Shown here one piece after another: positions 12,605 through 55,221 of a stretch of 64,000 nt of DNA. Location of the stretch: IMG/VR virus record IMGVR_UViG_3300042450_001219; one strand, given 5' to 3'. Position 1 is the stretch's first letter; each line of letters begins with the position of its first letter. Source of the stretch: an uncultured virus (IMG/VR IMGVR_UViG_3300042450_001219) (taxonomy: Duplodnaviria > Heunggongvirae > Uroviricota > Caudoviricetes). The translations under genes were made by a program, and so were the position numbers. Below the pieces are notes generated by a model. That model ran no database searches. It was not told the DNA's origin and was given only the letters and a program-made list of their open reading frames with translations.

Positions 12605-13180
12605 TTGGAGGAAATGCCTATGGAGAATATAAAAGAAAAACTTAGCGATGTTTTACATCACTATGTTGCAATAGCAGTAGCTGTATTGTTTTTATTTACT
12701 GGTCAACCAGAAATGATTCAATCAGCATCTGCACTGGTTGTAAAACCAGATGTAAAAACCGAAGCACAACTTGACAAGGAAACGCTGAAGCAATTCAGTA
12801 ATACTGTGTGGAAACCATCCGAGTCTTTAACAGATAAAGAATTGGTTGAACTTCTCAAAGCTGTAGGCTTTGAGGGTAGCGCCCTTAAAATGGCGTGGGC
12901 CGTAGCTAAAAAGGAGTCTAATGGACGCCCAATGGCTTATAACGGCAACATAAAAACTGGAGACAGCTCTTATGGAATTTTTCAGATTAACATGTTGGGA
13001 AACCTAGGTGATAATCGTAAAGAAAAGTTCAAACTGGACAGTAACTATTCGTTATTTGATCCAGCAATCAACGCAGAGATAACGTATTATATGACCAATG
13101 GCGGTCAAGATTGGTCGTCATGGAAAGGTTTAACTCCTCGAACAAAAGAGTGGCTAAACAAATTTCCATCTAGAAGTTAG
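12605..13180 (+). CDS. Lysozyme-like/lytic transglycosylase (SLT-type) with N-terminal membrane anchor
   Basis: AVAKKESNG (catalytic Glu), SYGIFQIN, DWSSW motifs; exact start uncertain (12605-12620). Confidence 0.8.
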   Translation: MEEMPMENIKEKLSDVLHHYVAIAVAVLFLFTGQPEMIQSASALVVKPDVKTEAQLDKETLKQFSNTVWKPSESLTDKELVELLKAVGFEGSALKMAWAVAKKESNGRPMAYNGNIKTGDSSYGIFQINMLGNLGDNRKEKFKLDSNYSLFDPAINAEITYYMTNGGQDWSSWKGLTPRTKEWLNKFPSRS

Positions 13181-13204
13181 AAAGGATTTACTATTAAGAT
13201 ACAA

Positions 13205-13414
13205 TTGGTATCTGAATATCTGAGCCTTTCAAGAGAAGGTCTTGTTTCAGAAATGGCTTGTCCATTAGATCAAGGCCTTCTCTTTTCTAACACAGACAAC
13301 GAAGATAAAATTTTTATTTATTGTGTTTCTTGTAAATACAAAAGCTATGTCGGTACAGCCCTTTATAGCAAAATGGTGAAAGAAATAGAAAATGCAAATA
13401 GAAAGCAAGTTTAA
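13205..13414 (+). CDS. Small Zn-ribbon-like hypothetical protein
   Basis: CPLD...CVSC. Confidence 0.5.
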   Translation: MVSEYLSLSREGLVSEMACPLDQGLLFSNTDNEDKIFIYCVSCKYKSYVGTALYSKMVKEIENANRKQV

Positions 13415-14085: not shown

Positions 14086-14718
14086 ATGGACTCGTATTTA
14101 AGCAGATGGACTGAAGATCAAGATTTTGTAAAACTACATAATGATTTTAATTTAATATGCAACATACAAAATTCTATGGATAATGCCCAGTACGGAAGAA
14201 TATCTATACTGAGACAGCTGGCAAAACATCAATCTGTAAAAAATCCAAATTTAAACTTTGCTGAGACTGGTGTTTATGCTGGAATGACAATGTTCTTTAC
14301 CGCCGAGTTTTGCAACAAATCTTTTATAGGAATTGATTCTTGGGAAGGTGTTTCTGAGCCAGGAGAGTTTGATACAGAATACTTTAAAACAGTAAAATTA
14401 AAATCTGAAATGGCGTGGGCAAAAAATAACCTATCTAGATACAAAAATATAGAATTAAAAAAAGGCTGGATACCAGAAGTATTTAAAGACCTTGAAGAAA
14501 AAGAGTATTCATTTGTACATGTAGATGTAGATTTATACGAGCCAACAAAAGAATCAATAGAATATTTTTGGCCTAAAATAGTTTCTGGCGGAGTGTTAAT
14601 ATGTGATGACTACGGTTCTTACAAAACAGAAGGATCTAGAAAAGCTGTAAAAGACGCTTTTGAAGATCACAATATACTTGAACTACCTACTGGCCAAGCT
14701 ATTATGTGGAAGGAATGA
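14086..14718 (+). CDS. TylF/MycF-family SAM-dependent O-methyltransferase
   Basis: ETGVYAG, DSWEG, KGWIPE, FVHVDVDLYEPT, GGVLICDDY motifs. Confidence 0.85.
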   Translation: MDSYLSRWTEDQDFVKLHNDFNLICNIQNSMDNAQYGRISILRQLAKHQSVKNPNLNFAETGVYAGMTMFFTAEFCNKSFIGIDSWEGVSEPGEFDTEYFKTVKLKSEMAWAKNNLSRYKNIELKKGWIPEVFKDLEEKEYSFVHVDVDLYEPTKESIEYFWPKIVSGGVLICDDYGSYKTEGSRKAVKDAFEDHNILELPTGQAIMWKE

Positions 14719-14730
14719 TACAATAATACT

Positions 14731-15381
14731 ATGACCACTTGGATGAAAAAAGAATTTGAAGAAAGCGGATATACCGTAGAAACTCCTATTGATGGATTGC
14801 TTGTTGTTAAAAACTTTATAACGAAAGAAGACATTGAAGAATACATGGGTATAATAAATAACACCTCTGAAGAACAATGGGATAAATGGTATACAGACCA
14901 ACTAAAGGTTTTCACAAAAGCAAAATTTGGCAGGGAAGATGTAGAAAACTTAGTTAAAGAAGGTTTATACGAAGTAACATTAAACTGGAATGATAAAAAC
15001 GTATCCTTCATTGACTCAGATATACACAGAAGAATAGATAAAAGATTTAATGATGTGCTTGAAAAAACCAAAGAAGGACTTTTACTAAGTGGATTTTATT
15101 TTATACAGAGAATGTATGATGGGGTACAGCTAGTATCTCATCATGATCAAAATACAGATGAATCAATACAACACGCTGGAGTTATATACATAAATAATGA
15201 TTATAACGGTGGTGAAATTTTTTGGGCTAAAAAAGGATTTGAAATGAAACCAGAACCTGGAGATCTTTTACTATTTGGTGGGGATCCAGAATGGGAGCAT
15301 GGAGTAAGGTTTGTAACAGAAGGACCTACAAGATATGTACTTCCAGCTTTTATAAAAATACCTAACTTTTACAAAAATTAA
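14731..15381 (+). CDS. 2OG-Fe(II) oxygenase, prolyl-4-hydroxylase-like
   Basis: HHD...YINNDYNGGE...PEPGDLLLF...HGV...R. Confidence 0.85.
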   Translation: MTTWMKKEFEESGYTVETPIDGLLVVKNFITKEDIEEYMGIINNTSEEQWDKWYTDQLKVFTKAKFGREDVENLVKEGLYEVTLNWNDKNVSFIDSDIHRRIDKRFNDVLEKTKEGLLLSGFYFIQRMYDGVQLVSHHDQNTDESIQHAGVIYINNDYNGGEIFWAKKGFEMKPEPGDLLLFGGDPEWEHGVRFVTEGPTRYVLPAFIKIPNFYKN

Positions 15382-16691: not shown

Positions 16692-17280
16692 TTATATTAG
16701 CCTATTATCTGATATATTATACCAAGGATAAAAGTCATTGCAGTTACTATGGCTATAGCCAAAAGAAGTTTCACTGTTCTATCCCCGTTTTTTTAAAAAT
16801 TGAATCTAGGACTTCATCCATAGAATCATCTATCGTTCTAGTATGTTGTCTTGAACAGTTTCCACATTCTCTACACATATCTATCACCTATTTGTCTTAT
16901 GTTCTTTATCTTGTTTTATAGATTTTATCTGGGTATATTAGATTTTAGGAAAGCCCCCCTACCCCCCAAATTTTTTCTTTTTGGAAAGATAGAGAAAGCA
17001 ATTCCTGGAACATATATCCACAGATGTTATCTGGTACATATTGAGTTTCAGGGTAAGCCCCCCACAAAGCAAACTAAGTGTAGCATTTTACTTTTACCAA
17101 AGTCAATAGCTTATATAACAGCTATGTTGATCAAGTAGTATCTTACCATATCCCCCGCCATTTATTCTAGTTGACTGCTTTTTCAGATTTAAGAAAATGT
17201 TAATATATTTTTTACATGTATGATACACAATTTAGGCAAAACGGACATTTCGGATAGTGCGCCCATAATGAATGGTCATT

Positions 17281-17321
17281 TGTGACTCATCTCACACGAT
17301 TTTTTTGTGATACACCTCACA
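17281..17321. promoter_or_regulatory. Two perfect CRP/GlxR-type boxes
   Basis: TGTGA-N6-TCACA at 17281-17296 and 17306-17321. Confidence 0.7.
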
Positions 17322-17414
17322 ATGTCCGAATTATACGCATTTTGGATTAGACATTTGTCAGACCCCCATGCTATGCTTAAGGTATAACAAAAACAAACGA
17401 AAGGTAATCATCTA

Positions 17415-17659
17415 ATGAATACACTAGAACGAATTAGAAAAGAACAACAAGAACGCTATGCGATACAGCGTGAAAAGGATAAGGCTAAAATAGAGGCTAT
17501 GTTTTCTAATAACCCTCGCCCTTTAAATAACGCCTACCTACTAGCGAAAGAGGAAAACTAATGAGCAACACAGTATTTGTTAGCACTTGGTTTTGCGACA
17601 TCTGCCAGATAGAAACAGGCGAGGACATCGCAGGCTCTATCTGGTGCGAGTGTGACTAG
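17415..17659 (+). CDS. Two tiny coupled early genes (17415-17561, 48 aa; 17561-17659, 32 aa with CxxC/CxC)
   Basis: GAAAGG RBS, TAATG overlap, directly downstream of the promoter. Confidence 0.6.
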
Positions 17660-17747
17660 TATCACACGACACACCCTAGCAACCTCCCCAATTTGTCAGA
17701 CCCCCATGCTACACTTACAACATAACAACAACGAAAGGTCAGAATAA

Positions 17748-18511
17748 ATGACACTAGATGAATACAAGCAAATGGTAGAGGCGCAACGCCTTGCCTCCCT
17801 AGCAATAGCCCTAGAGGCTTTGCGTAAGTCCGATACAATCGCTAAGGAGATGAATAAATAATGTCATACGCATACTCATACGAAACTAATAGCGTATCTA
17901 AATGGGATACTATCCAAGCAGATGTCGCAGACGCATACGCATACCTTGATGAGGTAGATGAGGAACAACCTCCACTAGATGAGTTTAATGATGAAGATAC
18001 AGACGAACTAGCAAAACTATACGCACTAACATGGGAGAACTAATAATGATAATTACTTACACACTTTGGCAAGGTAGCCAATTACTAAGCGTTAATAACA
18101 AGGCTACTAGCGCAGATGAACTGCTAACAGTAATGACCGAACTAAATAAACTAGGTAAGGGTTTCACTTACAACATTAGAGAAGTAGAGGTAAATAAGTA
18201 ATGACTATCGAACTAAATGAATACGGCTTTATGCTTGACATGGGTGATTTTATTTACTTATCCCTATCATGGGCTTTCCTTATCTTGTCCTCCGTTGTTT
18301 TTATCGGTTATAAGATTTATAAGAGAGTAAAGAATAATCGAACACTAGGCAATTGCTTGCCTACTAATACTAATGATACATGGGGAGAGTAATGAATAGA
18401 CTACTTACTACACTAGTCCAATTAGGTATTGGTATTCCCGCCCTAATTATGCTCCGCCTTGTATGGCGTGAGATCGTAGCGGATTACCGAGAGTGGGCTA
18501 ACTCACACTAG
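17748..18511 (+). CDS. Operon of five tiny early genes (17748-17861, 17861-18043, 18046-18201, 18201-18392, 18392-18511)
   Basis: Consecutive ORFs with RBSs and TAATG overlaps; the last two have hydrophobic segments. Confidence 0.6.
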
Positions 18512-18517
18512 CCTAAC

Positions 18518-18714
18518 GGCGTGTCGGCTTGACATTGTCAAGCTGGCCCGCAAGTACTTGCGGGAGTTATCCACAGGGTTACGGGGGTTATCCACAACCC
18601 CCAGGTTTTGCGACACGCCCGAGATTTTGTGATTACTATCACATAGGCTGAGCGTCTCATTATTTGGAATTACTGGCTAGTAGGTAGATAAATGTCAGAC
18701 CCCCGTGGTAAAAT
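18518..18714 (+). repeat. Composite intergenic cassette copy 1 (GGCGTGTCG, hairpin, 2x DnaA box, CGACACGCC, CRP box, promoter)
   Basis: TTATCCACA at 18567 and 18588; TGTGA-N6-TCACA at 18628-18643. Confidence 0.85.
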
Positions 18715-18736
18715 ACTACCATAACGAAAAAGAAAG

Positions 18737-19516
18737 GTGGTCACTATGACTACACTAACAAATACACATACACACACTCCACACATGGAGAGCGTATCTA
18801 CTACCTATGGCATGGGTGTAGATGTCGAATACACTTTCTGCGAAACATGCGAGCAGAACATAGATAGAGTCTATTTCTATGATGACTATGACCGCTTACC
18901 ATTTTATTCCGATTGGAGTTTAACTAAATGAAAACTAATTTTGAGGTAACGCAAGAAATAACAACTCTTGCTAAAAAGCACTATGGCGAAATGGATTTAG
19001 CCTTTAAGTGGGGTTGCGCTCAAGCGTTACTAAGCACTAAGCAATTAGAGATTATTCTAAACATACTAAAAGATAAGGAAACTAACTAAATGGCTGTATT
19101 TAATTTTGATTTATCCGTTACTGTTGAGGCAGATGATTTTGAGTCTGCCTTATCATGGTTAAAGGTTGTTCCATTAGAGCGACTTGATTTTATTGTTGTT
19201 GATTATACCGAATTGGAGTTAAGCGAATGAAATCAGATTTCGAAAAAGATTTAGAAATTAAAGAAAGCTTTATTGATTTACTAAATGATGTTTACCCTAC
19301 TGTAAAAATTGGTTACTCTACTTTTACTCCCGCCGAAATTTTGGAATGTTGCGACCCAATCGCTTTTTCAATCGGACTAATTGAACATGAAGATTATTTA
19401 GCAGAAATGGAAAACGAATAATGGATTTTTTTGGATTTGAAAAAGCAATTGAAATTGATCATTTAACAGATGAGCAAATTCTAAAGCTTGAAGAAATTTT
19501 TAAAGATTTCGAATAA
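18737..19516 (+). CDS. Cluster of about five small early genes (including 18737/18746-18931 and 19227-19421)
   Basis: Consecutive short ORFs with RBSs after the promoter at 18693. Confidence 0.55.
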
Positions 19517-19521
19517 ACAGC

Positions 19522-19714
19522 GGCGTGTCGACTTGACAAAAGTTGATGCGCCCGCAAAAGAGCGGGGTTATCCACAGGGTTACGGGGGTTATCCACAACC
19601 CCTGGAATTTGCGACACGCCCGAGATTTTGTGATTTTTATCACACGACTTGAGCGTCTCAAAATGTGGAATTACTCGCCAGTAATGTGAAAATGTCAGTG
19701 GCATAGGCTATAAT
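19522..19714 (+). repeat. Composite intergenic cassette copy 2
   Basis: TTATCCACA at 19568 and 19589; CGACACGCC at 19612; CRP box 19629-19644. Confidence 0.85.
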
Positions 19715-19746
19715 TGCCAGTATCAACAAACGAAAGGTGACAACTC

Positions 19747-19956
19747 ATGTCAGCAAAAGCATACACTATCGAAAGCCTCTTAGAGGGAAAACACTATCGC
19801 TCACACTCTCGCCATGACGAGGGAACTATCGTATACGCAACAAAGCGTGACGCAATTTGGTACGGAGAAAACCTAGAGGCTTACGCTATCGAGGTTCGCC
19901 CAACCCGTGGGATCAAAAACTTTTGGGCAACCATTGCGGTTAGGGTATCTGACTAA
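19747..19956 (+). CDS. Hypothetical early protein
   Basis: GAAAGG RBS after the promoter. Confidence 0.65.
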   Translation: MSAKAYTIESLLEGKHYRSHSRHDEGTIVYATKRDAIWYGENLEAYAIEVRPTRGIKNFWATIAVRVSD

Positions 19957-20312
19957 TTTGTCAGTGCTATCCGCTATAATTACAGAATAAACAAACGAAA
20001 GGAAAACTATGTTAAACATAATCGACAAAACCGATTTCTATGAAATCGCAGACGAGCAACATTTTTGTTGTGATGAAAGTCAATTTAAGTATTACTGTAT
20101 CGAACACCTAGAATTTATGGGTTGCTACTTTTGCGGATTTGACTATGACAAAGATTGCGAGGAACAACACTAATGATTAACTCAGTATTAACAATAGATT
20201 GCCAAGATTGCTTAGGTCATGGCGTAATCTTTTTTGGTGATGATAATGATTTTGATTGCGAGCCTTGCGATTGTCAAGATGGCTCTTTATTTAAGAACGG
20301 GGAAAATGACTA

Positions 20313-20707
20313 ATGTACCAAATAACAATTTCCTACGATAGCAAGCCTATCCATTGGAATAAAAACTATGATGACGCTTTAGAAGCGTTCACCGCATTTC
20401 TTTCATTTACCGATTGGGGATTTGCTAACGAATACTCAACTGTAAATTTAATGACGCCAACTGGCAAGATGTACACAAAAACATTTTATCGTGAAGGTCG
20501 AAAGGTCGTAACAAAATGATGACAAGAAAAGATTATGTCGCAGTAGCAGAAATTTTAAACTTTGCTAGTGATAAGGCGCACCCTGCTTTATTTTCTAAAA
20601 TTGTAAATGATTTCGCAGTTATGTTCGCAAAAGATAATGAGCGATTTGATGTAAACCGATTTCATAAAGCGTGTGGATACCATGTCACAAAATTCACTTC
20701 GAGATAA
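20313..20707 (+). CDS. Two small hypothetical early proteins (20313-20519, 20516-20707)
   Basis: Coupled ORFs; the second has an MTRKDY...NERFDxxRFxxAC phage motif. Confidence 0.65.
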
Positions 20708-20821
20708 AGTTAAACGCATACAGGAATTGCGTCGCAGTAATGCGGCGCAACCTGTACGCAATAAGAAAAAATATTTTAGAAAAATAAAACATAAAAATAA
20801 ATTTGATCAATGACGCTGCCC

Positions 20822-20957
20822 GCCCGTAAAGCTGCGGGGTTATCCACAGGGTTACGGGCGTTATCCACAACCCCCTGGAATTTGTGAGATTAATCACAAA
20901 ATAAATTAGATAAAGCTTGGGCGTGTTGAGCAATTTGTCAGTGGCATAGGCTATAAT
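20822..20957 (+). repeat. Composite intergenic cassette copy 3
   Basis: TTATCCACA at 20840 and 20861; CRP box 20883-20898; promoter at 20936. Confidence 0.85.
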
Positions 20958-20986
20958 ACTCTTATACCAACAACGAAAGGCAACAA

Positions 20987-21453
20987 ATGAGAATAGAACA
21001 CAACCTGAAGTTCGTAACAGAGTTTAAGGACGGCCATCCAGTAACTAAGCAAATAGAAATGCTTGATGAGGATACTCGTATCTTTATGCTAGAGTCAATG
21101 CTAAAAGATTTAGTCGGTAGCCGACTACAACCAATTCTTGATGAGATAAATGCTAATGGCTCATACGCAATTCTTAAGGTGGCAGAATAATGGGATACAA
21201 TACAGCATTAGATTTAACTGAATTAGATTTAGAGGTAGCACTAGGTTATCACTTACAGGGTAATCATTACCCGCCCGTCCCACTTTCTATGGTACAGCCT
21301 TGTATCGAGGCTATTGATGCTTACTATGATGAGGATTATAATAAGTTGATCGAAATGCCTGAAGGCGTATCTTATAAGGGTGACTCTCATGCGCCAGCGT
21401 GGGCTATTATCGAACAGCACCACTTAGACGCTTGGCTACCTGAAAGTGACTAA
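20987..21453 (+). CDS. Two small hypothetical early proteins (20987-21190, 21190-21453)
   Basis: RBS and TAATG coupling. Confidence 0.65.
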
Positions 21454-21550
21454 GGTCACACAATAACTTTCTCAAATAATGAGATAGGGCTAGACTAATG
21501 TCAGACCCCAATGCTATAATTACCAACCTAACAAAGAAAAGAGGCAATAA

Positions 21551-21733
21551 ATGACAATCAACGACAAGTTGTATCAGGTAGGCGATTTATTCACTACCCT
21601 TAAGTCAAAGAAAACAGGTGTGATTAAAGAAATCCACCCACAAACATCTGGCTCGGTGCGTGTGCTATTGGAAATGCCAAACAAGGAAACTCGTTGGACT
21701 TCCGTATCCGCTCAAACACTACTAGGCGTATAA
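21551..21733 (+). CDS. Small hypothetical protein (SH3/KOW-like)
   Basis: YQVGDLF...GVIKEI pattern; has its own promoter. Confidence 0.6.
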   Translation: MTINDKLYQVGDLFTTLKSKKTGVIKEIHPQTSGSVRVLLEMPNKETRWTSVSAQTLLGV

Positions 21734-21819
21734 TCTAAAGGCAGGGGGGTCGCAGAAATGTCAGACCTCCCTGCTATAATTACTTCATCAACCCAACCCA
21801 CAACGAAAGAAGGAAACAA

Positions 21820-22242
21820 ATGGCTAGAGGAAAAGCAATCTCGGTGAAAATCCCAACTCAGCGAGTAATCAAGGCTTTGGAAACAAAGTTGGCACAACTA
21901 AATAAAGACTTCGCATCACAAGAAGCAAACGAAGCAAAGTATAACAAGCAGGTAGAAGCGTGGAAAAAGGAAATTGGAAAGTGGGCTATTGCTAACTTCT
22001 CAAAGGCTGAAAACCTACGCACAAACTATCGCAACTGGAACAACACTCTCAATGTTGATTTTGACATCATCACAAAGGAAGGAAACTTCCCTGCTGAACC
22101 TGAGAAGGACTACGAAGTAATCCACCGCCACTCATACAATGAGATGAAAGAGGAAATGGAAAACGCAATTCGTATTCTTAAAATGACAGATGAGGAAGTT
22201 GTTAATACCAGCACTTACAATGCGGTTGCTCGTTATCTGTAA
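21820..22242 (+). CDS. Hypothetical early protein
   Basis: Own promoter and RBS. Confidence 0.75.
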   Translation: MARGKAISVKIPTQRVIKALETKLAQLNKDFASQEANEAKYNKQVEAWKKEIGKWAIANFSKAENLRTNYRNWNNTLNVDFDIITKEGNFPAEPEKDYEVIHRHSYNEMKEEMENAIRILKMTDEEVVNTSTYNAVARYL

Positions 22243-22251
22243 ATAATCCAA

Positions 22252-22278
22252 CGACCTGAGTATGTCGCCAAACTGCTC
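22252..22278 (+). ncRNA. Candidate mini H-type pseudoknot RNA motif, copy 1
   Basis: CGAC-CTGAGTAT-GTCG-CC-AAACTGCTC; loop GAGTA can pair with TGCTC. Confidence 0.55.
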
Positions 22279-22313
22279 TCCCTTTTGGGACAACTACTAA
22301 CAAAGGCAACAAA

Positions 22314-22568
22314 ATGAAAAATCGTTTCAGAGTAGAAATCTATGATGAGAACAAGTTAAATGATGTAACAATTTATTCAGAGCAAGGCGTTGATAAGGAA
22401 TACTTAACTGAATTAGCATTCTCTAATCGCCGTAACTTTTTTGGTGATGTTCGTGCTTATGTGTATGATACATTGAAGAAGACTAAGACAACTGCTCTTT
22501 ATCTTCCCGCCGAAGTTATTAACTTCAATCGAAAGAATCAATTAACCAGGGATGAGTTAGGTCTGTAA
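22314..22568 (+). CDS. Hypothetical early protein
   Basis: RBS; ORF. Confidence 0.65.
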   Translation: MKNRFRVEIYDENKLNDVTIYSEQGVDKEYLTELAFSNRRNFFGDVRAYVYDTLKKTKTTALYLPAEVINFNRKNQLTRDELGL

Positions 22569-22600
22569 AGATCTAACACTAGCTGCATATCCTGCAGCTG

Positions 22601-22737
22601 GCCCGTAAAGGTAAGGGGTTATCCACAGGGTTACGACTGCCTGTGGATATCCCTGGAATTTTGTGAGATTAATCACATGGATCAATTCGGACATATTGTA
22701 TCTAATCCTAGACAATGTCAGTGGCACCTGTTATACT
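22601..22737 (+). repeat. Composite intergenic cassette copy 4 (second DnaA box inverted)
   Basis: TTATCCACA at 22619; TGTGGATAT at 22642; CRP box 22662-22677; promoter at 22716. Confidence 0.8.
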
Positions 22738-22768
22738 TATGACTAATCAAACGAAAGGTAAAAAATAT

Positions 22769-23776
22769 ATGGCTCACAATCTAGAAATGGAAAACGGCGA
22801 AGTTGCTTTCGCTCTCCGTGGCGCACCTGCTTGGCACAACCTAGCAAATCGCATCTTCACAAAAGATGAAGAAGTTACTACCGCCCTAATGCTTGAAGAA
22901 GCAAAGTTGGCAAATTGGAATGTTCGTCTATCTCCAATCACTGAGCACATTCCAGAATCTTGGAATGATGTCTCTACCGCATCTCTTGTCATTCGTGACA
23001 ATCCATTCAATAAGGGAACTGATGTTCTTGCCACTGTTGGCAAGCGTTACAAGCCTGTACAGAATGAAGAATTATTCGCATTCGCTGATGCTATTCATGA
23101 TGCGAACGCTGACTGCCGTTGGGAATCTGCTGGCTCATTGAAAAAGGGCAAAGTTGTATTCGGCACTGTTGATATTCCTCGCACAATGGTTCTTGACCCA
23201 CAAGGTGCCAACGATGAAACTAAACTCTATTTAATTGTATGGACATCACATGACGGGTCAGTTGCTGTTCAGGCTGCTGTTACTCCTGTTCGTGTTGTAT
23301 GCCAAAACACATTGAATCTTGCCATGCGTAACGCTAAGCAATCTTTCAAGATTCGTCATACGCAATCTGTTGAAGGTCGCATTCAAGTTGCTCGTGAAAC
23401 TCTTGGGCTTGCTCTTGGTTACTTTGATGAATTCGAGAAGGAAGCGCAAGCACTTTATTCTCAGTCAATTACTGATGCTGAATTCTCAAAGTTAATTCAC
23501 ACAATTTATCCAAAGCCTGCTGATGATGCTGCTAAAGTTGCGCTAACTAAATGGGAGAATAAGGTCGTGCTACTTGATGACCTTTACCATAACTCACCAA
23601 CTAATGCTAACATCAAGGGAACTAAATGGGGTGCGTTTAATGCTCTCACCGAACGCCTTGATTACTATCGCTCAGGTCGTGGAAATTCTGAAACGCTTAT
23701 GGCTGGCGCATCAGGATTTGACCCAGTGCTAACCGCTGAGAAAAACAAAATCAAGAAATTGATTTCTGCTTTCTAA
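22769..23776 (+). CDS. DUF932 family protein (TIGR03299-like phage/plasmid protein)
   Basis: PAWHNL, YKPVQNEE, ESAGSLKKG, SHDGS, TPVRVVCQNTL, GTKWGAFNALTE; start moved to the MAHN codon after the RBS. Confidence 0.88.
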   Translation: MAHNLEMENGEVAFALRGAPAWHNLANRIFTKDEEVTTALMLEEAKLANWNVRLSPITEHIPESWNDVSTASLVIRDNPFNKGTDVLATVGKRYKPVQNEELFAFADAIHDANADCRWESAGSLKKGKVVFGTVDIPRTMVLDPQGANDETKLYLIVWTSHDGSVAVQAAVTPVRVVCQNTLNLAMRNAKQSFKIRHTQSVEGRIQVARETLGLALGYFDEFEKEAQALYSQSITDAEFSKLIHTIYPKPADDAAKVALTKWENKVVLLDDLYHNSPTNANIKGTKWGAFNALTERLDYYRSGRGNSETLMAGASGFDPVLTAEKNKIKKLISAF

Positions 23777-23784
23777 ATAAAAAT

Positions 23785-23811
23785 AATCCTGAGCAAGATT
23801 TAAAACTGCTC
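23785..23811 (+). ncRNA. Candidate mini H-type pseudoknot RNA motif, copy 2
   Basis: AATC-CTGAGCAA-GATT-TA-AAACTGCTC. Confidence 0.55.
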
Positions 23812-23823
23812 ACATTTTTTCTT

Positions 23824-23900
23824 GGTCCATTAGCTCAGTTGGTTAGAGCGCTACCCTGTCACGGTAGAGGCCGACGGTTCAAGTCCGTTATGGATCGCCA
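23824..23900 (+). tRNA. tRNA-Asp(GUC)
   Basis: Cloverleaf, anticodon arm CTACC-CTGTCAC-GGTAG, encoded CCA. Confidence 0.92.
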
Positions 23901-24001
23901 AGCGCCCTCAAAGCTAAGGGGGCAAAAAGTGTGTTACGACTCACATTTAAATTCCCTGGAATCTATTGTAAATGTCAGTGGGGTCCTGTATAATTCTGTA
24001 C

Positions 24002-24676
24002 ATGACCAACGAACTAGTATCAAGCGTGTACACATTTGTCTGTGACCCAGATGAGTGTGATTGTTTAATCCAATTAACATCATCTGATGGATTTGGCTTT
24101 CCATCAGGTGTGACAGAACTCACATGCCCGTGTGGCCGTAAGACCACATTAGTGTCAGTGGAGCATGCTACAATTACATCCTTAAACCAAACGAAAGAAG
24201 GAAGCAATATGGACGGAATGACAGTAGAAAACCTGCCTCTATCAGATGCAGAGAAGTACAACCCTGACCAATTAGTTACATACAAAGTAATCCGTGGTTA
24301 TTCGGATGCTGAATATGCTACAGATAAAGTTCGCAACATTGAATACGAACTGCATAATGGTCGCACAAATTCTAAGGCAGTCTCATCTTTACAGAATAAG
24401 ATTGGCTTAGTTAAAGATATTATTTCAGAGGCATATGCTGATTCAGAAGACCAAGAAACTTTGCAAGCAATTGCAGAAGCGCTTGAGATTGAATTAATTA
24501 GAGAGATTGAATGGTCTGCATCTATTGAAGTTAGCGGAACTATTTCAGTCAACCTACTTGAGGATACTCATTTTGACTTAGATTCAGAAATTGAAGATGC
24601 TCTTTATGCTGATTCACACAATGGCAACATTGAAGTTGTTGACCAAGAAATCTGCAACATTAGGGAGAACTGCTAA
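24002..24676 (+). CDS. Hypothetical protein with an N-terminal Cys-rich domain and a likely internal in-frame start at 24209
   Basis: Leaderless ATG 7 nt after TATAAT (23989-23994); a second promoter (24153) and RBS precede ATG 24209. Confidence 0.65.
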   Translation: MTNELVSSVYTFVCDPDECDCLIQLTSSDGFGFPSGVTELTCPCGRKTTLVSVEHATITSLNQTKEGSNMDGMTVENLPLSDAEKYNPDQLVTYKVIRGYSDAEYATDKVRNIEYELHNGRTNSKAVSSLQNKIGLVKDIISEAYADSEDQETLQAIAEALEIELIREIEWSASIEVSGTISVNLLEDTHFDLDSEIEDALYADSHNGNIEVVDQEICNIRENC

Positions 24677-25241
24677 TGTATTTTGAGTTGACTGCTCCTG
24701 ATAGGCTATCCATGGAGATGGCCTATTGGGATGCACAAATTATTGGGCTGGACCCGCAAGCAATGTCACCGTTGACATTCAACATTGGAACTGGTAGTAT
24801 TGAGAAAGTAAGTAGAATTCGTGATAAGTATAACTTAACTGAATCTTACATATCAGACTACGAAACCACAGGTTATTAAGGAGAAATTATGTCAGACTAT
24901 AAAGATGGTTGGGACGATGGGTATAAGTTTGCCCGTGATGAAATCATGGAAAAGTTATCAGAGATTGATATCAACGACATTGATTCCTGGATCCTTGATC
25001 GTCTTTCTGAGATGATTGAAGGTGGAGCACTATGACAATGGAAGATCTAACAAGATGGATAGCATGTGACCAATGTGGCACAGCCCAAGCAATGTATATG
25101 GTTAAACTAGTAGATGGTGAGCTTTTCTTTTGCGGTCACCACTACAACGCAAGCAAGCGTGGCCTTGACAAGGTCGCATACGAAGTGATAGAATTAAACA
25201 AAACGGAAGAAGCAATCCCTCAACTAGAAACGGCGGAATAA
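24676..25241 (+). CDS. Three small hypothetical genes (24676-24879, about 24889-25035, 25032-25241 with a CxxC...CxHH Zn motif)
   Basis: Coupled ORFs with RBSs. Confidence 0.6.
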
Positions 25242-25242
25242 A

Positions 25243-25608
25243 ATGGGCGACAGAGCAAACTTTGGATTCAGAGATTCCAAGGAGAATGTACTATTTCTAT
25301 ATGGACACTGGGCTGGGCATAATATGCTAGCCAAGTTGGCCAATGCTGTGCAGGCTGCAGAGCCTCGCTGGCAGGATGAATCATATGCAACACGCATTGC
25401 TATATCTAATCTAATTGGAGAAGACTGGACTGAAAAAACAGGCTGGGGTATCTACATTAATCAATTAGGAGATAATGAGCATAAGGTGCCTGTTATTGAT
25501 TGGTCCAATCAAACTTTTACACTGTATGAAGAGGACCTGAGCACGGTAGTGTTTACCTCGTCCCTTGCAGCATTCGTAGATAAATACAGTCGACTAGTTA
25601 TGGTATAA
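25243..25608 (+). CDS. Hypothetical protein (MGDR...LYxHW phage family)
   Basis: ORF; motif typical of actinophage early genes. Confidence 0.7.
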   Translation: MGDRANFGFRDSKENVLFLYGHWAGHNMLAKLANAVQAAEPRWQDESYATRIAISNLIGEDWTEKTGWGIYINQLGDNEHKVPVIDWSNQTFTLYEEDLSTVVFTSSLAAFVDKYSRLVMV

Positions 25609-25730
25609 TTAGACTAGGACTTTGGTCCTGGTTTTAATAGGAAATGAAATGGTGCGTCTATTAGTCTTTAGGGCCAGGCGCTAAGTAAAGCGGTTTATTT
25701 CTTTCGTTGGAAATCAGCAGCCATATTCAT

Positions 25731-25757
25731 AACCCCCAGCATAGCTGGGGGTTTTCT
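25731..25757 (+). terminator. Rho-independent terminator
   Basis: AACCCCCAGC-ATA-GCTGGGGGTT-TTCT. Confidence 0.75.
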
Positions 25758-25935
25758 ATTGCCCGCAAAGACTTGAGGGTAGCATGTTTGTTTTACGACG
25801 TCAAGTTAATTTTCCCAGGAATTTGTGTGATCTTGACCACAAAGCTGAATCATGTGGCATGTATCACATGCCAATTCTATTCCATTTGTCAGTGGTCCAA
25901 TGTATAATTATCACATATCAACGAAAGGATATAAA

Positions 25936-26670
25936 ATGCCAAATTGGGTATTTAATGGATTAACAATTGAAGGTAATCCTGAGCAAGTAAAATCTCTAAT
26001 CAAGCAAATGAATAAGCCATTTGTTTATTCTATTACTGCAGTAGGTGATTTATCATATGATGTCAAGCAGACTAAGTATGTTAATCCTATCTTTGCTTTT
26101 CATAATATATATAACTATAGAGATGCTGGTATTACTGATGAGGTATATCATGGACAACCTCCTCGTTCCACCGATTTTTCTCAGGCAATGAAGTTTGAGA
26201 CCAATGACTGGTACAACTTTAATGTGCGTGAGTGGGGAACCAAGTGGGATGTTGCTGTAGCCGAGGGTAATAAGTATCCTGATACAACTATTGAAGAAGC
26301 AGAAAACGGTGAGAACTATGTAGTTCATTACAACTTTAACACTGCATGGTCACGACCTCTCGGTGCTATCTCTAAACTATCTGCACAATACCCCAATCTA
26401 CTATTTACTTTATCATATGAAGAAGAAACAGGTTGGGGTGGGGAAATGGAATTCCTCCGTGGAGAAGTTATCTCAGAATCAGAATACGATAATATGTGCC
26501 GTGATTGTGATGCAACCGACCAAATGGAATACTGCGACAATGACTGCGGTGAAATCTGTGGCAACTGCAACTGGCTAGGCAATGCTGACCTAGAGGCTGT
26601 AGCAATTTGTCAGACCCATAAGATATACTTAGACACTAAAGTACCCGAATATAGAAAGGCGGAAGCATAA
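25936..26670 (+). CDS. DUF1281/YubB ferredoxin-like domain protein with a Cys-rich C-terminus
   Basis: MPNW start, WYNFNVREWGTKWD, FNTAWSRP, YEEE motifs. Confidence 0.75.
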   Translation: MPNWVFNGLTIEGNPEQVKSLIKQMNKPFVYSITAVGDLSYDVKQTKYVNPIFAFHNIYNYRDAGITDEVYHGQPPRSTDFSQAMKFETNDWYNFNVREWGTKWDVAVAEGNKYPDTTIEEAENGENYVVHYNFNTAWSRPLGAISKLSAQYPNLLFTLSYEEETGWGGEMEFLRGEVISESEYDNMCRDCDATDQMEYCDNDCGEICGNCNWLGNADLEAVAICQTHKIYLDTKVPEYRKAEA

Positions 26671-28479
26671 TGGAAGCATTTACAGATACAGTAGGAGAAC
26701 ATATCCTTGGAGCAATTCAAGTAGATATTGAGCAAGCATTATTTGAAGATTGGAATCAATCTAACTTAGATGAGGGTGAAGCATATGCTGAGTGGAGATT
26801 TATGCAATTTGCTCCTGATAACTTAAAACAATCATACAATGAATACTATGGTTATATTGAAGGAGATGAGTATTGCTTATGATTACCAGCCAAGAACTAA
26901 TTGATTATATTTATGATGACAACTTAATCCATTTTGATGACAGAGACACATCTGATGATTGTGATTGTCACATTCACATAACATTAAACACTATGATTAA
27001 ATATATGGAGGCAATAGAATGCTAGGTTATACATTAGATGATCTTGATGAAATGAGGGCTGTTGTTACTAAGGCTCTATATGATTCTAAAGGACTGCCGA
27101 CTGAAAAAGGATTAGAAAAGACAGCAGACTTTTTAGACGGGCTTTGGGCGGAGGGTTACTTTGACTAAGTCATCACATTTTATGGAGTATCTAAAGATAC
27201 ATAAGATTAGTTTAGAACAAGATTTAGAAGATGCTAGAAATAATATTCCTATTCCTGAAGATGAATACTTCGAATCAGATAGTTATTATATGGGTGCCAT
27301 TGATACTATGGAACATATTTTGTCAGTGGCTACTGATATAATGATTGATAACGAAAGGGTATATTAATGAACATATCATCTAGAGAAGTTACTTATCGTT
27401 CCGCCGTTGAACAAATATTTTTTGAGGACGGGACAGAATTGGTAATCACAATTGGTGCTCCTGCCGAAGGCGGAGGAGATATCGATATTGAATATGATTG
27501 GGTAGAAGGAAAGCCTGATTGGGCAAACAACTTAAATGAATCAACACTAGTGAACTATGAGGTAATATAATGAATCAAGAAGACATTGGGCTCCCTCCGC
27601 ACCTACAGCGTTTGGTTAATGCGGGTGTTAGCGGATTAGATATAATGCACGGAGAACTAAAGAACTTAATGCTAATTGCCGAGCAAGATTTAAAGGACGC
27701 ATTAGCACAGGAGGAGTTGTCTGAAGAGGCAATGGATTCTATGGTCCGAACAGAATGTGAAGGACGACTAGATACTCTAGTCGAACTATATCAACTAACA
27801 TATGAACTATCATTTGCAATTCAATCAAGAATAGATTTGGAGTTTGCTAATGAAGCCTGACGATAAAGATAAACTAAACAAGTGTTTAGAGATTCTAGAC
27901 AGCACTGACCTAGGTCTATCATTAGTTTGGTTGTGGACTTGGTCAACAATTAACAACATATTTGAGGATGAGACCTACAAGCAGAACTGCACCCTAGATG
28001 ACATGTGGGGCCACCTCTGTGAGGCTGTGGAGGCTGGACAAGGGTTCTCCCTGGAATGGGGAGCAGAACAGCACCAAGAAGAAGTTTTAGAATGGATGTT
28101 AAACAGGGACTACATCGTAGACCCTGAAGATGAAGAAGAGGAGGACGAAGATGAAGATGAGTGATAAGTACTTAAACGATCAACTTAGTAAGGCCCAAGC
28201 TTTGCTGTGGGGTGGCAGCGAAACAGAAAACATCGAGGCCCATAACATAATTGCTAAACTAATTAAAGACAAGATAGAACAGGTGGAACTATGACTAAAC
28301 AGTTTAAAGTATATGGCGACATCATTCAGGAATTTTACATTGTAGTAGAAGCCAAGGACAGTGATGAGGCATGGTACAAGGCAGTGGCCACACCTAAGAA
28401 AGAATGGCAAAAGGGTGTCAATCGTAAAGATAAGATAGAACCTTATCAAGTAGAAGAACTAGAACTTACAACTAAATAA
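26670..28479 (+). CDS. Run of small acidic hypothetical genes (26670-26882, 27161-27367, 27367-27570, 27570-27860, about 27850-28164, 28291-28479 and others)
   Basis: Contiguous coupled ORFs. Confidence 0.6.
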
Positions 28480-28625
28480 AGATAGGTTAGGCCGTTATGG
28501 ACAATTCGGACATAACGGTCATAATCTAAGGGCACGGGCAAAAATTTTGCTTTACGGCACCTATTTACAAATCGCCGAAATTCGGATATAATATATATAA
28601 CAAAGATCTAGAAAGGATCAAACAA

Positions 28626-28778
28626 ATGACATCAACACCAACAACAACTCGTGAGTACCTCAAGACCCAGGGAATTTCTGTGGGCAAGCGTGGCCGCTTT
28701 TCAGCTGCAGCTCTAGGCGTTATCAGCAAGGCAGCACAAGAAGGCGTAGTCTTCACAGACAAGAAGAACGTCAAGTAA
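28626..28778 (+). CDS. Stand-alone Lsr2-like DNA-binding domain protein (50 aa)
   Basis: Not in the ORF track. MTSTPTTTREYLKTQGISVGKRGRFSAAALGVI; promoter TTTACA-N17-TATAAT at 28564-28592 and a GAAAGG RBS. Confidence 0.65.
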   Translation: MTSTPTTTREYLKTQGISVGKRGRFSAAALGVISKAAQEGVVFTDKKNVK

Positions 28779-28891
28779 TAAACTAAGTGTGGGGTTCCTC
28801 CTCTCTGTGGGAAAACGGGAAAGGGGAGGAACCTCGCTTCATTTACAAATGTCAGTGGTCAATGGTATAATCAAAACGAAAGGCGGAACTC

Positions 28892-29236
28892 ATGGCTAAA
28901 GCGAACGAATTCAAAGCAGCAGAAAAACTAACAGACTATCTAAACAATGCTAACTTCTCCCCTGCCGTAATGGCAAATGTATTAACAACTGAACATACCT
29001 TATACACCCAAGACAGGCTAATGGAACTAGTTAGATATATTATCCAATACAATTCCCTTAGATTAAAGTCAGAATGGGATAAGGGATATACATCCGAAGG
29101 ATTGCTTCTGGCTGATGCTCTCAACGATATGATTGAGGCAAAATACGGGGCGGTGGATAGAAACCTAACAATTAAATCCCTTGAAGAAACAAGAGTAAGA
29201 GACCCTAAGTACATAATGGATCTAGATTCATTCTAA
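28892..29236 (+). CDS. Hypothetical protein
   Basis: Promoter at 28850 and RBS. Confidence 0.7.
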   Translation: MAKANEFKAAEKLTDYLNNANFSPAVMANVLTTEHTLYTQDRLMELVRYIIQYNSLRLKSEWDKGYTSEGLLLADALNDMIEAKYGAVDRNLTIKSLEETRVRDPKYIMDLDSF

Positions 29237-29632
29237 TATAATTTCCCCTATGGGGCATATGGCTTTCCAGCTATATGTCCCATTTTTGTATGCCCATCTT
29301 ATGGGCCAAATTTCTTCTTTACGACGCATATAAAAATACGCTGGAATTTGTATGCATATTGATCAAAATCTGTCAAAATCTGTATAGAATATCTCATTAT
29401 ATGAGACAAATTATACAGAATTAGACATAATTTTTTGCCATAAATATGGGCCAAAATTGCTCTTTACGAACAAATAAAAAAATTTCCTGGAATATCTATT
29501 GACAAATATTGGCCAATATGCTTTATATGGGCGCTATTGACATTATGACCCATCATATGGTAACGTTCCATTACATAGATATGTTTAGATAGTTATAATG
29601 ATAGTATTTAGACCTAAATTGATAGTATGATT

Positions 29633-29658
29633 CTCCACTTTACTCCACAATACTCCAC
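29633..29658 (-). promoter_or_regulatory. MraZ-type triple direct repeat
   Basis: GTGGAG-TATT-GTGGAG-TAAA-GTGGAG with exact 10-bp period. Confidence 0.55.
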
Positions 29659-29873
29659 TAAATAAGCCTCTAGGAGGCTGATACAAGGGAGATAAAAGGG
29701 AGGGGGGATATAATGGGTAAGGACCCAATTGCTTAAATTTCTACAGCTATTTTGCTGAGCATGTAAGGCATATGAATGGGTCATCATCTTGCTTAACATA
29801 GAGTTGCTTACATTGAGTACATGCTACCTTATATGGCTCTGTATTTACATACTTCTCATAGGATGATTGAAAC

Positions 29874-33007: not shown

Positions 33008-33808
33008 CTAAATGTTGTCAATAGTATTATTGTTATTAAAACTTATTAGCTTTTCTTCCATATTTTGGTAAGGCTCTCCAAGAGCTGAAGTTATTCCTGT
33101 TCCAGTATGCATAAACAAAAATATATAAGTTTTGTTTCCAGAAATCACTTCACTAACTTCATGAGAAACCAAGCATGGAAGAAAAACTATGCTCCCAGCT
33201 GAAGGCTTTATTGAATATCCTAGCTGATCAAACACTAGTTCTCCGCCTTCGTAGTCATCATTTAAATATATGAGAGACGTCCAGTCCATCGAATTTTTTG
33301 GGTTTAAAATGTTTCTGTCTATGTGTGGCCCCATGAAACCACCAATTCTATACTTTCTAATACAGTAGTTTCTGGTTATGTGATGCGGTAGATCATTGTT
33401 TGTCTTTTCTGACCAAATTTTTAAAGCGTTAATATAATCATCTTCTATCATTTTGATAGCTGGCAATGCCAATTGATGAGCTTTGCTTTCTTGAGCATAA
33501 TTAGAAATATCTTTGCGGGGCCAATATTGATTGTCTTCATTATAAGAAAGGTCCCAGTCTAACATCTTAGCAACTCCTGCTAAGGCTCCTTCGTTGTCTG
33601 GAAATATCTGTTCCCATTTTGTCAAATCATTTTCGTCTAAGCTAACTGGATAGCCGTTAATCCATGTGCTCCATGAAGGGAAAACTTTTAAAATTTCAGG
33701 GTTTTGATCATTTGATTCCACAAAATCTAAAAACTCTTTAGATTTAGGAAATGCATTCTCAATGTATATTACGCCACCAGGCATATCGTGAATTATTGGA
33801 GTAGTCAT
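33008..33808 (-). CDS. 2OG-Fe(II) oxygenase, prolyl-4-hydroxylase-like
   Basis: MGPHID, YLNDDYEGGEL, KPSAGS, HEV. Confidence 0.85.
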   Translation of the reverse strand: MTTPIIHDMPGGVIYIENAFPKSKEFLDFVESNDQNPEILKVFPSWSTWINGYPVSLDENDLTKWEQIFPDNEGALAGVAKMLDWDLSYNEDNQYWPRKDISNYAQESKAHQLALPAIKMIEDDYINALKIWSEKTNNDLPHHITRNYCIRKYRIGGFMGPHIDRNILNPKNSMDWTSLIYLNDDYEGGELVFDQLGYSIKPSAGSIVFLPCLVSHEVSEVISGNKTYIFLFMHTGTGITSALGEPYQNMEEKLISFNNNNTIDNI

Positions 33809-33815
33809 GAATTAA

Positions 33816-34004
33816 TTATAGCATTTCTTTGTTTATTGCGTCTTTAATCACTGGATCAAGTCTGTCCCAATGTCCTTTTTCGCTTCCCTGGTAAACCTGA
33901 CCAGTTTCTCTATCCACAAGAAGCCACTTTTCTGGACACTTAGTTTTAACAGTTAAATTGACAGATTTTAAAATTGTTTTAAACTTAAATTGTTTACGCA
34001 ACAC
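33816..34004 (-). CDS. Hypothetical protein, paralog of 54944-55210
   Basis: TKCPEKWLLVDRETGQVY. Confidence 0.55.
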   Translation of the reverse strand: MLRKQFKFKTILKSVNLTVKTKCPEKWLLVDRETGQVYQGSEKGHWDRLDPVIKDAINKEML

Positions 34005-34301
34005 TTATCCTTTTATTGCAAGCACACTTTTTGTATTTAAAAGTAAGTACTTTTCTCCATCTGTATCTTCAATATCTGTTCCGCTATTTTGGTTGTAATA
34101 AACTATATCATTAACATTGAGGCCCGTTATAGGAATGAGCTCGCCTTTATAGTTATATTCTCCGTTTCCCATTTCTACAATCTTACCAGTTCTAAGGTTA
34201 GATTCACTTAATGATGCCATAAGAACTATGCCAGACGTTGTGGTTCTGTCCTCAACTTTATCTTCTTTTACTAACAACAAGTTGCCAAATGGTTTAATCA
34301 T
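34005..34301 (-). CDS. groES: Co-chaperonin GroES (Cpn10)
   Basis: IKPFGNLLLVK, TTSGIVL, G.IV..G.G motifs. Confidence 0.85.
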   Translation of the reverse strand: MIKPFGNLLLVKEDKVEDRTTTSGIVLMASLSESNLRTGKIVEMGNGEYNYKGELIPITGLNVNDIVYYNQNSGTDIEDTDGEKYLLLNTKSVLAIKG

Positions 34302-34501
34302 TTGTTATTACTCCTCAAAAGATTCTTGTGTTTCCCAAAAGCTATCCTTTTTGAACTGCTCTTGTATTCTTTTTGCATCTAAAATTACAGACATTTCTCT
34401 ATAAAGTTTTATTCCCATGTAAACACACACTGCAAATATAGCTGCGGCAAATATAATAAAGTTATTCATATCTATATTATACAGCACTATAAGTAAAGCT
34501 G

Positions 34502-35182
34502 TCAATCCTTATATATATTTTTTAATACTTCTCTAGAATCAAAACCTTTAAATTCATATTCCTTTTCTTTAACAAGCCATAGAATTACAGCATACTTAGT
34601 TCCGTCTGATATCATCCTGCCACCGTGCCACTGATCGGCTGGGAAAACAAATGCGTCCAAGGCTCTTGGCTTGCACACAAGACCGCCTGCGCCATCTTTA
34701 TATAAATAAAATGTATCACCGTACCGCGCTGCATGTGGAGATTCTTCAAAATCAGCTTCGTCAAAGCTCTCCAAGAAAACAACTTCTCCGTCTGAATAAT
34801 TATCGTTAAGGTATATAACACAGCTCCAAACTAAAGATGAGAAATCGTTGTGGACGTCCTGATGTATTCTAAGCTGTATATCTTTTGATAGTTTTGTTAT
34901 AGAAACTCCATAAAAATATAAATCTTGATCTATTTTATATTCTGATTTAACAGTGTCTATAAATTTTTTAGAATACTTATTTATAATTGGCTCTAGATCT
35001 TTAAACAAATACGGTGGCTTCTGGTCTGGGAATATTGCTCTAGATGCCAATCCTTTATTTACTGCTATGCCAACTCTACTTTTAAACTTTAAATCATCAT
35101 CCGAATTTTTATTAATCCAGTCTATTAAAAACAAAGAGTCTTCCTCAGATATAAAGTTGTTAATTAATTTTATATCTTTCAT
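34502..35182 (-). CDS. 2OG-Fe(II) oxygenase
   Basis: IHQD, YLNDNYSDGE, HGG...KY. Confidence 0.8.
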   Translation of the reverse strand: MKDIKLINNFISEEDSLFLIDWINKNSDDDLKFKSRVGIAVNKGLASRAIFPDQKPPYLFKDLEPIINKYSKKFIDTVKSEYKIDQDLYFYGVSITKLSKDIQLRIHQDVHNDFSSLVWSCVIYLNDNYSDGEVVFLESFDEADFEESPHAARYGDTFYLYKDGAGGLVCKPRALDAFVFPADQWHGGRMISDGTKYAVILWLVKEKEYEFKGFDSREVLKNIYKD

Positions 35183-51472: not shown

Positions 51473-51549
51473 AGTATCAGTATAGTATAATTAAATTGGC
51501 AGGTGTTTGAGATACGGTTAACTAAGAATTAACTTTAAGCAAACTTTAG

Positions 51550-51738
51550 CTATTTAGGATTATCTGTTTTATAGAAGCCATTACCTTTAAATTGTACACC
51601 AACTGTAGTAAAAAACCTTGTCATTTCAGACTCACATTCAACACATGTATATCCAGGATCATCTTCAGTCATTGACCTATGGACTGACATCTTTGCATGT
51701 GCATCATCATATGAGCATTTGTATTCGTATACTGGCAT
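51550..51738 (-). CDS. FmdB-family zinc-ribbon protein
   Basis: MPVYEYKC...CVEC...FKGNGFYKTD. Confidence 0.85.
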   Translation of the reverse strand: MPVYEYKCSYDDAHAKMSVHRSMTEDDPGYTCVECESEMTRFFTTVGVQFKGNGFYKTDNPK

Positions 51739-51758
51739 ACCTATTCCTTAAAGTTAAT

Positions 51759-55210: not shown

Positions 55211-55221
55211 ACTGCCTCCTT

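Follow-up and report, generated by a model that had tools for sequence, protein, structure and literature searches.

The closest described counterparts of the promoters reported here are the PafBC-dependent (RecA-NDp, recA P1-type) promoters. A consensus of tGTCgg(N10)tA(N3)T has been published for them, the element lying at −28 to −23 (PMC8635444), and residues R46 and R50 of PafB read the GTC triplet while PafC holds region 4 of the sigma factor (PMC8635444, PMC11804915). PafBC binds only with the polymerase on the promoter, and its activity in vitro needs single-stranded DNA (ssDNA) (PMC11804915). Here we describe an array of 15 promoters of this type in a 64,000-nucleotide stretch of DNA from an uncultured tailed phage (IMG/VR record IMGVR_UViG_3300042450_001219), the whole of which is referred to as the window. 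The phage promoters share with the known class a GTC at −27 to −25 within a hexamer at −28 to −23, the 10 nt that separate the hexamer from TANNNT, and the scarcity of −35 elements (PMC8635444, PMC11804915). They differ in that they belong to a phage of virulent type, in that the 15 copies lie within 11.5 kb in front of small uncharacterized genes rather than repair genes, and in that their −10 elements are much stronger, extended, and joined with phased CRP-type and DnaA-type boxes.

Three other systems invite comparison. The middle promoters of phage T4 (MotA/AsiA) also combine an element other than the −35 with an adaptor that redirects the housekeeping sigma factor (PMC8635444). T4 supplies its own adaptors, whereas here no phage adaptor was found and the element matches a host element. 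Phages wired to LexA and the SOS response, such as CTXphi, GIL01 and 186, are temperate and use a repressor for induction; the present case would instead involve an activator, and neither an integrase nor a repressor was seen among the scanned open reading frames (ORFs) of the near-complete relative G007 (51 of its 53 ORFs without a match in the window, a 2826-aa ORF being left out). The terminal-repeat block of the Streptomyces BE phages (Stanwilliamsviridae) likewise holds DUF932 and Lsr2 genes within a block of small genes with a promoter for every 1–3 genes, and in BE phages these two genes lie in an 11-kb terminal repeat (PMC5764925, PMC8612146). The BE promoters, in contrast, have the form TTG..-N17/18-TAGACT, and the pattern described below gives 0–3 matches per BE genome, the level of chance.

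The PafBC-type promoter class is known, and its use as an array in a phage is apparently new. As the preliminary description of this DNA had stated of phage early promoters, our literature search found no report of a PafBC promoter class in phages. A 2025 study linking pafBC and mycobacteriophage resistance (Rafique et al., ACS Infect Dis), cited in PMC12848934, may bear on this novelty, and the excerpts of PMC10914622 and PMC10202952 describe lake actinophages without promoter analysis.

A promoter array in a plus-strand gene block

The pattern TGTCAG-N10-TANNNT occurs 18 times in the window, compared with a mean of 0.71 (maximum 5) in 100 dinucleotide shuffles, and 15 of these matches lie on the plus strand within 17356–28871. 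Across 17000–29100, TGTCAG is found 17 times on the plus strand and never on the minus strand; 15 of the 17 carry TANNNT at a spacing of 10 nt, and the other two are gene starts that read ATG-TCA-G. Only this spacing is enriched, with all others from 4 to 21 giving 0–3 matches in the same interval. An ATG lies 1–34 nt past the predicted start site in 15/15 cases, preceded in 14 by a GAAAG/AAGG-type ribosome site; these leader lengths would fit a start site about 7 nt downstream of the −10. In overall layout, TGTCAG is fixed at −28 to −23, the −10 is close to consensus and in many cases extended, the leader is short, the ribosome site strong, and there is little −35 element, although a match to five of the six −35 positions is retained in three of the 15 promoters. 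The hexamer is followed by TG in nine copies and AC in six, and preceded by A in eight, T in six, and G in one. The remaining three matches, at 4439 and 4571 (plus strand, opposite a tail-fibre gene) and at 46327 (minus strand, inside the WhiB ORF), look like the product of chance.

These results agree with the preliminary description in that every promoter is on the plus strand in front of a gene, and in that the promoters agree exactly with the published PafBC consensus, both in sequence and in spacing (PMC8635444). The pattern it reported is real, but the count is 15 rather than 14. Its form tTGTCAGtg, said to be frequent, holds in part: TG follows in most copies but AC in six, and a T precedes six of the 15. 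Its contrast with a normal −35/−10 promoter is borne out by the absence of a conserved −35 column (see below), with the three −35 matches standing apart from it. The block and the promoters are listed here, together with one degenerate copy.

17415..29236, plus strand: block of about 40 ORFs, mostly small and of unassigned function; the rest of the window is on the minus strand
17356..17377, plus strand: PafBC-type promoter 1, five-of-six −35 match with spacer 18, heads ORF 17415
17694..17715, plus strand: PafBC-type promoter 2, heads ORF 17748
18693..18714, plus strand: PafBC-type promoter 3, heads ORF 18746
19693..19714, plus strand: PafBC-type promoter 4, heads ORF 19747
19959..19980, plus strand: PafBC-type promoter 5, heads ORF 20009
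20936..20957, plus strand: PafBC-type promoter 6, heads ORF 20987
21499..21520, plus strand: PafBC-type promoter 7, heads ORF 21551
21759..21780, plus strand: PafBC-type promoter 8, heads ORF 21820
22716..22737, plus strand: PafBC-type promoter 9, five-of-six −35 match with spacer 17, heads the DUF932 gene
23973..23994, plus strand: PafBC-type promoter 10, leaderless geometry with ATG at 24002
24153..24174, plus strand: PafBC-type promoter 11, within the end of ORF 24002–24187, heads ORF 24209
25887..25908, plus strand: PafBC-type promoter 12, heads ORF 25936 (DUF1281_C/Api92-like)
26608..26629, plus strand: PafBC-type promoter 13, within the end of ORF 25936–26670, codons fixed among relatives
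27321..27342, plus strand: PafBC-type promoter 14, within the end of ORF 27182–27367, codons fixed among relatives
28850..28871, plus strand: PafBC-type promoter 15, five-of-six −35 match with spacer 18, heads ORF 28892
25588..25609, plus strand: degenerate box, GTC triplet and perfect −10 at spacing 10, heads a non-coding stretch of about 140 nt

For comparison we used 80 of the 271 IMG/VR loci with DUF932, the slice from the window being counted among them; these relatives are 92–100% identical and hence not independent. The array is present in 80/80, with 6–18 copies each, and the pattern falls on the gene strand 1162 times and on the other strand 6 times. Four near-complete relatives have 14–16 copies in the block and 0–2 elsewhere. 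To avoid circularity, promoters were also picked by ribosome site and −10 element alone, ignoring the box, and were deduplicated. Of the 108 promoters obtained in this way, 103 have GTC at −27 to −25 and 98 have TGTCRG, while no −35 column is conserved; of the five without this GTC, three carry the box upstream of a neighboring −10.

Constraint is also seen where boxes lie in coding sequence, as do those at 24153, 26608, and 27321, which overlap the end of the upstream ORF. One such box, read as TGT-CAG-ACC, is invariant in 49/49 aligned homologues, against a background of 161/357 for TGT and 135/308 for CAG, and in further genes TTG-TCA-GTG is kept in 45/46 and TCA in 43/43 aligned homologues, all of which are related to each other. 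Synonymous positions are frozen while neighboring codons vary, and the box is under selection at the DNA level. The spacer bases vary freely while the box and −10 are fixed, and a fixed spacing to the −10 implies contact with the polymerase.

Few of the ORFs in the block belong to families (DUF932, DUF1281_C, DUF7455, and Lsr2-like), and most have none. Genes on the minus strand of the phage are served by six TTGACA-type promoters with spacers of 17–18 nt, so the PafBC-type box is specific to the block, within which the Lsr2-like gene is an internal exception:

22769..23776, plus strand: DUF932 gene, sharing about 50% identity with a gene in the terminal repeat of Streptomyces BE phages
28564..28778, plus strand: Lsr2-like gene (28626–28778) with an ordinary TTTACA-N17-TATAAT promoter

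Homology to the BE terminal-repeat genes suggests that the genes of the block are early; we looked for a time course of block expression in the literature and found none. The tailed phage genome has 38% GC, and the window encodes WhiB, a class II ribonucleotide reductase, PstS, and six tRNAs. Its terminase (TerL) is 58–64% identical to those of Streptomyces BE/BK phages and the best-matching public runs are lake metagenomes, which points to a lake actinophage related to the BE/BK phages, with a host that is likewise deduced. The public runs were consulted as contigs rather than reads. RNA contigs of relatives cover the block in three runs, possibly through DNA carry-over, and contig depth in one DNA run is 41–63 inside the block and 28–34 outside, which is not a measure of copy number.

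Several observations lie beside the array itself. An Rfam scan returned tRNAs only. The non-coding stretch behind the degenerate box (25588–25755) ends in a terminator-like hairpin (fold z −2.97) and has no Rfam match; it is possibly a small RNA. A stretch comprising an SLT/lysozyme-like gene and the sequence behind it (12605–13301) stands out in run X19 with by far the greatest RNA contig depth, and its depth is high in X21 and X22 too, contig depth being a poor measure. An AT-rich non-coding region with repeated TATGGGC-like words (29240–29720) sits at the turn of the cumulative GC skew and is a candidate origin or genome end. Auxiliary genes are found at 14086–15381, 33008–37434, and 50429–55773, and include several 2OG-Fe(II) oxygenases, GroES, a Dps-like ferritin, PstS, Hsp20, IMPDH/GMP reductase, an AhpC/AhpD-like pair, and an APS-kinase-like protein.

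Extended −10 elements and phased upstream boxes

The preliminary description overlooked the strong extended −10, the residual −35 matches, and the phased CRP-type and DnaA-type boxes. Among 223 deduplicated promoters of the relatives, the −10 is TATAAT in 93, TG stands at −15/−14 in 136, and G at −14 in 176; a five-of-six −35 match is kept in 26, compared with a background of 1.5%. Such an extended −10 may give basal, partly PafBC-independent activity. Taken with the residual −35 matches and the phased boxes, it suggests that PafBC is one input among others and might boost these promoters without being their only switch.

Allowing one mismatch at most, the palindrome TGTGA-N6-TCACA occurs 12 times in the window where 2.8 are expected. 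All 12 boxes lie 34–75 nt upstream of 10 of the 15 promoters and on one helical face (phase p ~0.0014), at offsets of 34, 43, 43, 44, 50, 53, 54, 54, 61, 64, 65, and 75 nt. Matching offset peaks are found in the relatives, at 132/223 promoters. The arrangement resembles class I CRP promoters of the E. coli lac type, in which the same palindrome stands upstream at steps of about 10.5 bp. It departs from them in that the centers, at about −54.5, −63.5/−64.5, −73.5/−74.5, −84.5/−85.5, and −95.5, are 2–3 bp off the E. coli series, and in that the boxes precede a PafBC-type rather than a −35 promoter. A Crp-family protein is encoded in 41/41 genomes of the order Nanopelagicales, the deduced host group.

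17281..17296: CRP-type palindrome, offset 75 from promoter 1
17306..17321: CRP-type palindrome, offset 50
17651..17666: CRP-type palindrome, offset 43
18628..18643: CRP-type palindrome, offset 65
19629..19644: CRP-type palindrome, offset 64
20883..20898: CRP-type palindrome, offset 53
21445..21460: CRP-type palindrome, one mismatch, offset 54
22662..22677: CRP-type palindrome, offset 54
23930..23945: CRP-type palindrome, one mismatch, offset 43
24109..24124: CRP-type palindrome inside ORF 24002, offset 44
25826..25868: two CRP-type palindromes, one mismatch each, offsets 61 and 34
18567..18596, plus strand: pair of DnaA-type boxes
19568..19597, plus strand: pair of DnaA-type boxes
20840..20869, plus strand: pair of DnaA-type boxes
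22619..22627, plus strand: single DnaA-type box

The seven boxes that we take to be of DnaA type (TTATCCACA) lie within repeated intergenic modules. Eight modules of the form TTACG-N14-24-G(G/A)AAT, all on the same strand, are spread over 18546–29490; several follow GCCC..AAA and are filled with DnaA-type or CRP-type boxes, and two are flanked by the inverted pair GGCGTGTCG/CGACACGCC.

PafBC in the probable hosts and the search for a phage reader

The preliminary description had proposed looking for pafBC in the predicted host, and the likely host lineages do carry it and have the same box in front of recA, so that the lack of PafBC that would have spoken against the idea was not encountered. 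Among the Nanopelagicales, the order to which a Candidatus Planktophila metagenome-assembled genome belongs, WYL proteins are found in 101/101 genomes, as adjacent pairs in those inspected, and most genomes have a third WYL-domain protein. The helix RMFER is present in 14/14 PafB sequences from outside Aquiluna, with both DNA-reading arginines kept. A box yGTCRG-N10-TACCTT/TACCGT lies within 260 nt of 26/30 Nanopelagicaceae recA genes, and one of the misses has it just beyond this limit. The phage box is identical to this host recA box at every base, and the TG extension and the spacing agree as well. In three Ilumatobacteraceae genomes the PafB helix is RAAFER and TGCAAC/TGCCAC stands at the position of the recA box, and in Aquiluna the helix is KMFDR and the box TGTCTT. 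The recA box and the PafB helix vary together, with a possible change of PafB specificity in Acidimicrobiia (RAAFER, the same three genomes), and among these lake lineages the phage box would fit Nanopelagicales best.

Elsewhere in the host genomes, 30 of 54 pattern sites were examined and 13 downstream genes scanned. Six of the 13 encode DnaN, three DnaQ-like exonucleases, DinB, and a D12 methylase, and a start codon falls at +28 to +31 after 8/30 boxes, a leaderless geometry. In one host genome (G038:C1), nine of the 13 pattern matches are found in a single 30-kb island (477153–506363), where boxes precede genes for a C5 methylase (leaderless), an Nhi/AbiO-like helicase, and HD, vWA, and LysM proteins, hinting that PafBC may also control the island's defense genes.

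We also looked for a reader encoded by the phage, with five near-complete relatives (G007–G011, 96–100% completeness) standing in for the whole genome. No WYL, Sigma70_r2, or cNMP-binding domain was found in any of the five, and profiles of the PafB and PafC N-termini, run against six-frame translations of the window, of two whole relatives, and of the 80 loci, found nothing (best E-value 0.87). The scanned ORFs of G007 are replication and virion genes, with one 160-aa HTH_17 protein among them. The idea that the phage may encode a PafBC-like activator is thus not borne out, as no WYL or sigma domain was found in the five near-complete relatives and no PafB/C-like helix-turn-helix (HTH) protein in the sequences searched with the profiles.

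Mechanism, alternatives, and occurrence in cultured phages

We consider it probable that the housekeeping polymerase reads these promoters once host PafBC, activated by ssDNA, has adapted it to them, and that CRP supplies a second input; PafBC might either gate the promoters or only boost them. Under this proposal, PafBC would be switched on by ssDNA that arises through host damage or while incoming or replicating phage DNA is processed. As in mycobacteria, PafB would read the GTC triplet and PafC would hold sigma region 4, and host CRP would add its input from upstream. Some 40 small, probably early, takeover-type proteins would then be made. More speculatively, since the phage −10 is nearer to consensus than the host recA TACCTT, the phage promoters may also divert activated PafBC-polymerase from host genes for repair and defense. 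The preliminary description had suggested that the early program may be driven from the host DNA-damage sensor; the promoter match and the host recA box agree with this, while the term early derives from homology.

Several points weigh against this reading. PafBC may be dispensable, because so many promoters of the relatives have the TGn extension, a TATAAT, or a residual −35. The layout of CRP and PafBC boxes has no host precedent, as 0/26 host recA promoters have a CRP box. In vitro, PafBC shows no activity unless ssDNA is present (PMC11804915), a requirement that sits poorly with immediate-early genes. In five host genomes the pattern is no commoner than a reversed control (8–13 versus 9–12 matches), and the box thus does not act as a general promoter in the host. 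The other seven of the 13 scanned host genes, two DUF6504 genes and five others, are not obvious repair genes; at the two DUF6504 genes there is a palindrome that we take to be LexA-like. PstS, tRNA-Asp, and IMPDH gave no clear host assignment: PstS shares only 36% with its Planktophila counterpart, and tRNA-Asp is 77–84% like those of both Nanopelagicales and Microbacteriaceae. Finally, an activator of a new fold may be present among the small family-less ORFs of the block.

This last point leads to the view that the phage encodes or injects its own activator of another fold, in the manner of T4 MotA/AsiA, and that the resemblance to PafBC promoters reflects convergence or is a relic. With such an activator, no ssDNA would be required when infection begins, and besides the many family-less ORFs there are WhiB and the Lsr2-like protein in the phage and the HTH_17 protein in G007. 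We nevertheless regard it as unlikely, given the base-for-base identity with the host recA box, the failure to find a PafB-like HTH, WYL, or sigma protein, and the occurrence of Lsr2 in cultured BE/BK relatives without the array. The promoters could instead be constitutive, with the box serving chiefly as a decoy that binds PafBC or some other host factor, or adding a minor boost. The frequent TG and TATAAT of the −10 favor this, as do the ordinary TTG..-N17/18-TAGACT promoters in the homologous block of the BE relatives. However, the −35 is mostly lost, the box keeps a single spacing and does not vary even where changes would be synonymous, its fixed spacing implies contact with the polymerase, and PafBC binds only with polymerase, so that a decoy role would itself be transcription (PMC11804915); together these make a constitutive array rather improbable.

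We give still less credence to a different activator or sigma factor of the lake actinobacteria as the reader of the box. The third WYL-domain protein in most genomes of the order would be one source for it, and the host is itself deduced, but the box is found at host recA and changes with the PafB helix (three genomes for the changed form). Readings of the box as a sigma-54 promoter or as a WhiA-type GACAC site were rejected, as they fit neither the sequence nor the position. It is hardly credible that the array lacks a regulatory role and arose as a side effect of cassette duplication or as a recombination repeat. Assemblies do often break or skip between intergenic modules in the block, and the promoters at 19693 and 20936 are near-identical, but the codon-level constraint in three genes and the orientation of all copies into genes largely refute it.

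Cultured actinophages show how far the use of the box might extend. In the BE phages Jay2Jay and Karimac the homologous block is driven by TTG..-N17/18-TAGACT promoters and the TGTCAG array is absent. Several promoters of the Jay2Jay terminal repeat have both a TTG −35 and GTC at −27 to −25, which may reflect chance, duplication, or a hybrid state. Across 19 cultured actinophage records there are 0–4 matches each, 20 in total compared with 21 in the reversed control, and no array. Six of the 20 sites were picked post hoc (five of the six with the TG extension, plus PegLeg) and are leads only. In the cluster S mycobacteriophage Blackbeetle (MK494123.1 36672–36702), the box TGTCAGTG ends 6 nt before the GTG of a Cas4/RecE-like exonuclease gene, in leaderless geometry, and the stretch is 98–100% identical in 19 records including Marvin. 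Boxes precede an exonuclease-RecT pair and SSB in Microbacterium phage Bush (PP978824.1 23078, 28602), an AAA_24 protein and gp57 in Patience (JN412589.1 42516, 55263), and, as a single copy, a putative PDDEXK nuclease in PegLeg (46306). Single boxes in phages of M. smegmatis make the idea testable in an existing pafBC-deletion strain, with cluster S as a bench model.

Taking these leads together with the array, we tentatively suggest, as a broader and more doubtful proposal, that an abundant lytic family of lake actinophages hands its takeover genes to the host's ssDNA alarm. Infection or sunlight damage would activate PafBC, which with CRP on the same face would form a two-input gate; the 15 strong promoters would also pull PafBC-polymerase off host repair and defense genes; and the use of PafBC might be a wider, overlooked strategy of actinophages, as the single boxes of cluster S, Patience, and Bush may indicate.

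If the proposed role of PafBC is true, an activator known only from the host DNA-damage response would have been turned into a phage promoter class, and a virus would be using as its own switch a WYL-type nucleic-acid sensor, from a family often tied to anti-phage defense. The sequence of the box would give a clue to the host, since it changes with the PafB helix, and a structural question would arise as to how CRP works on promoter DNA straightened by PafBC. It would also tie the activity of one of the commonest groups of lake phages to UV and DNA stress in surface waters.

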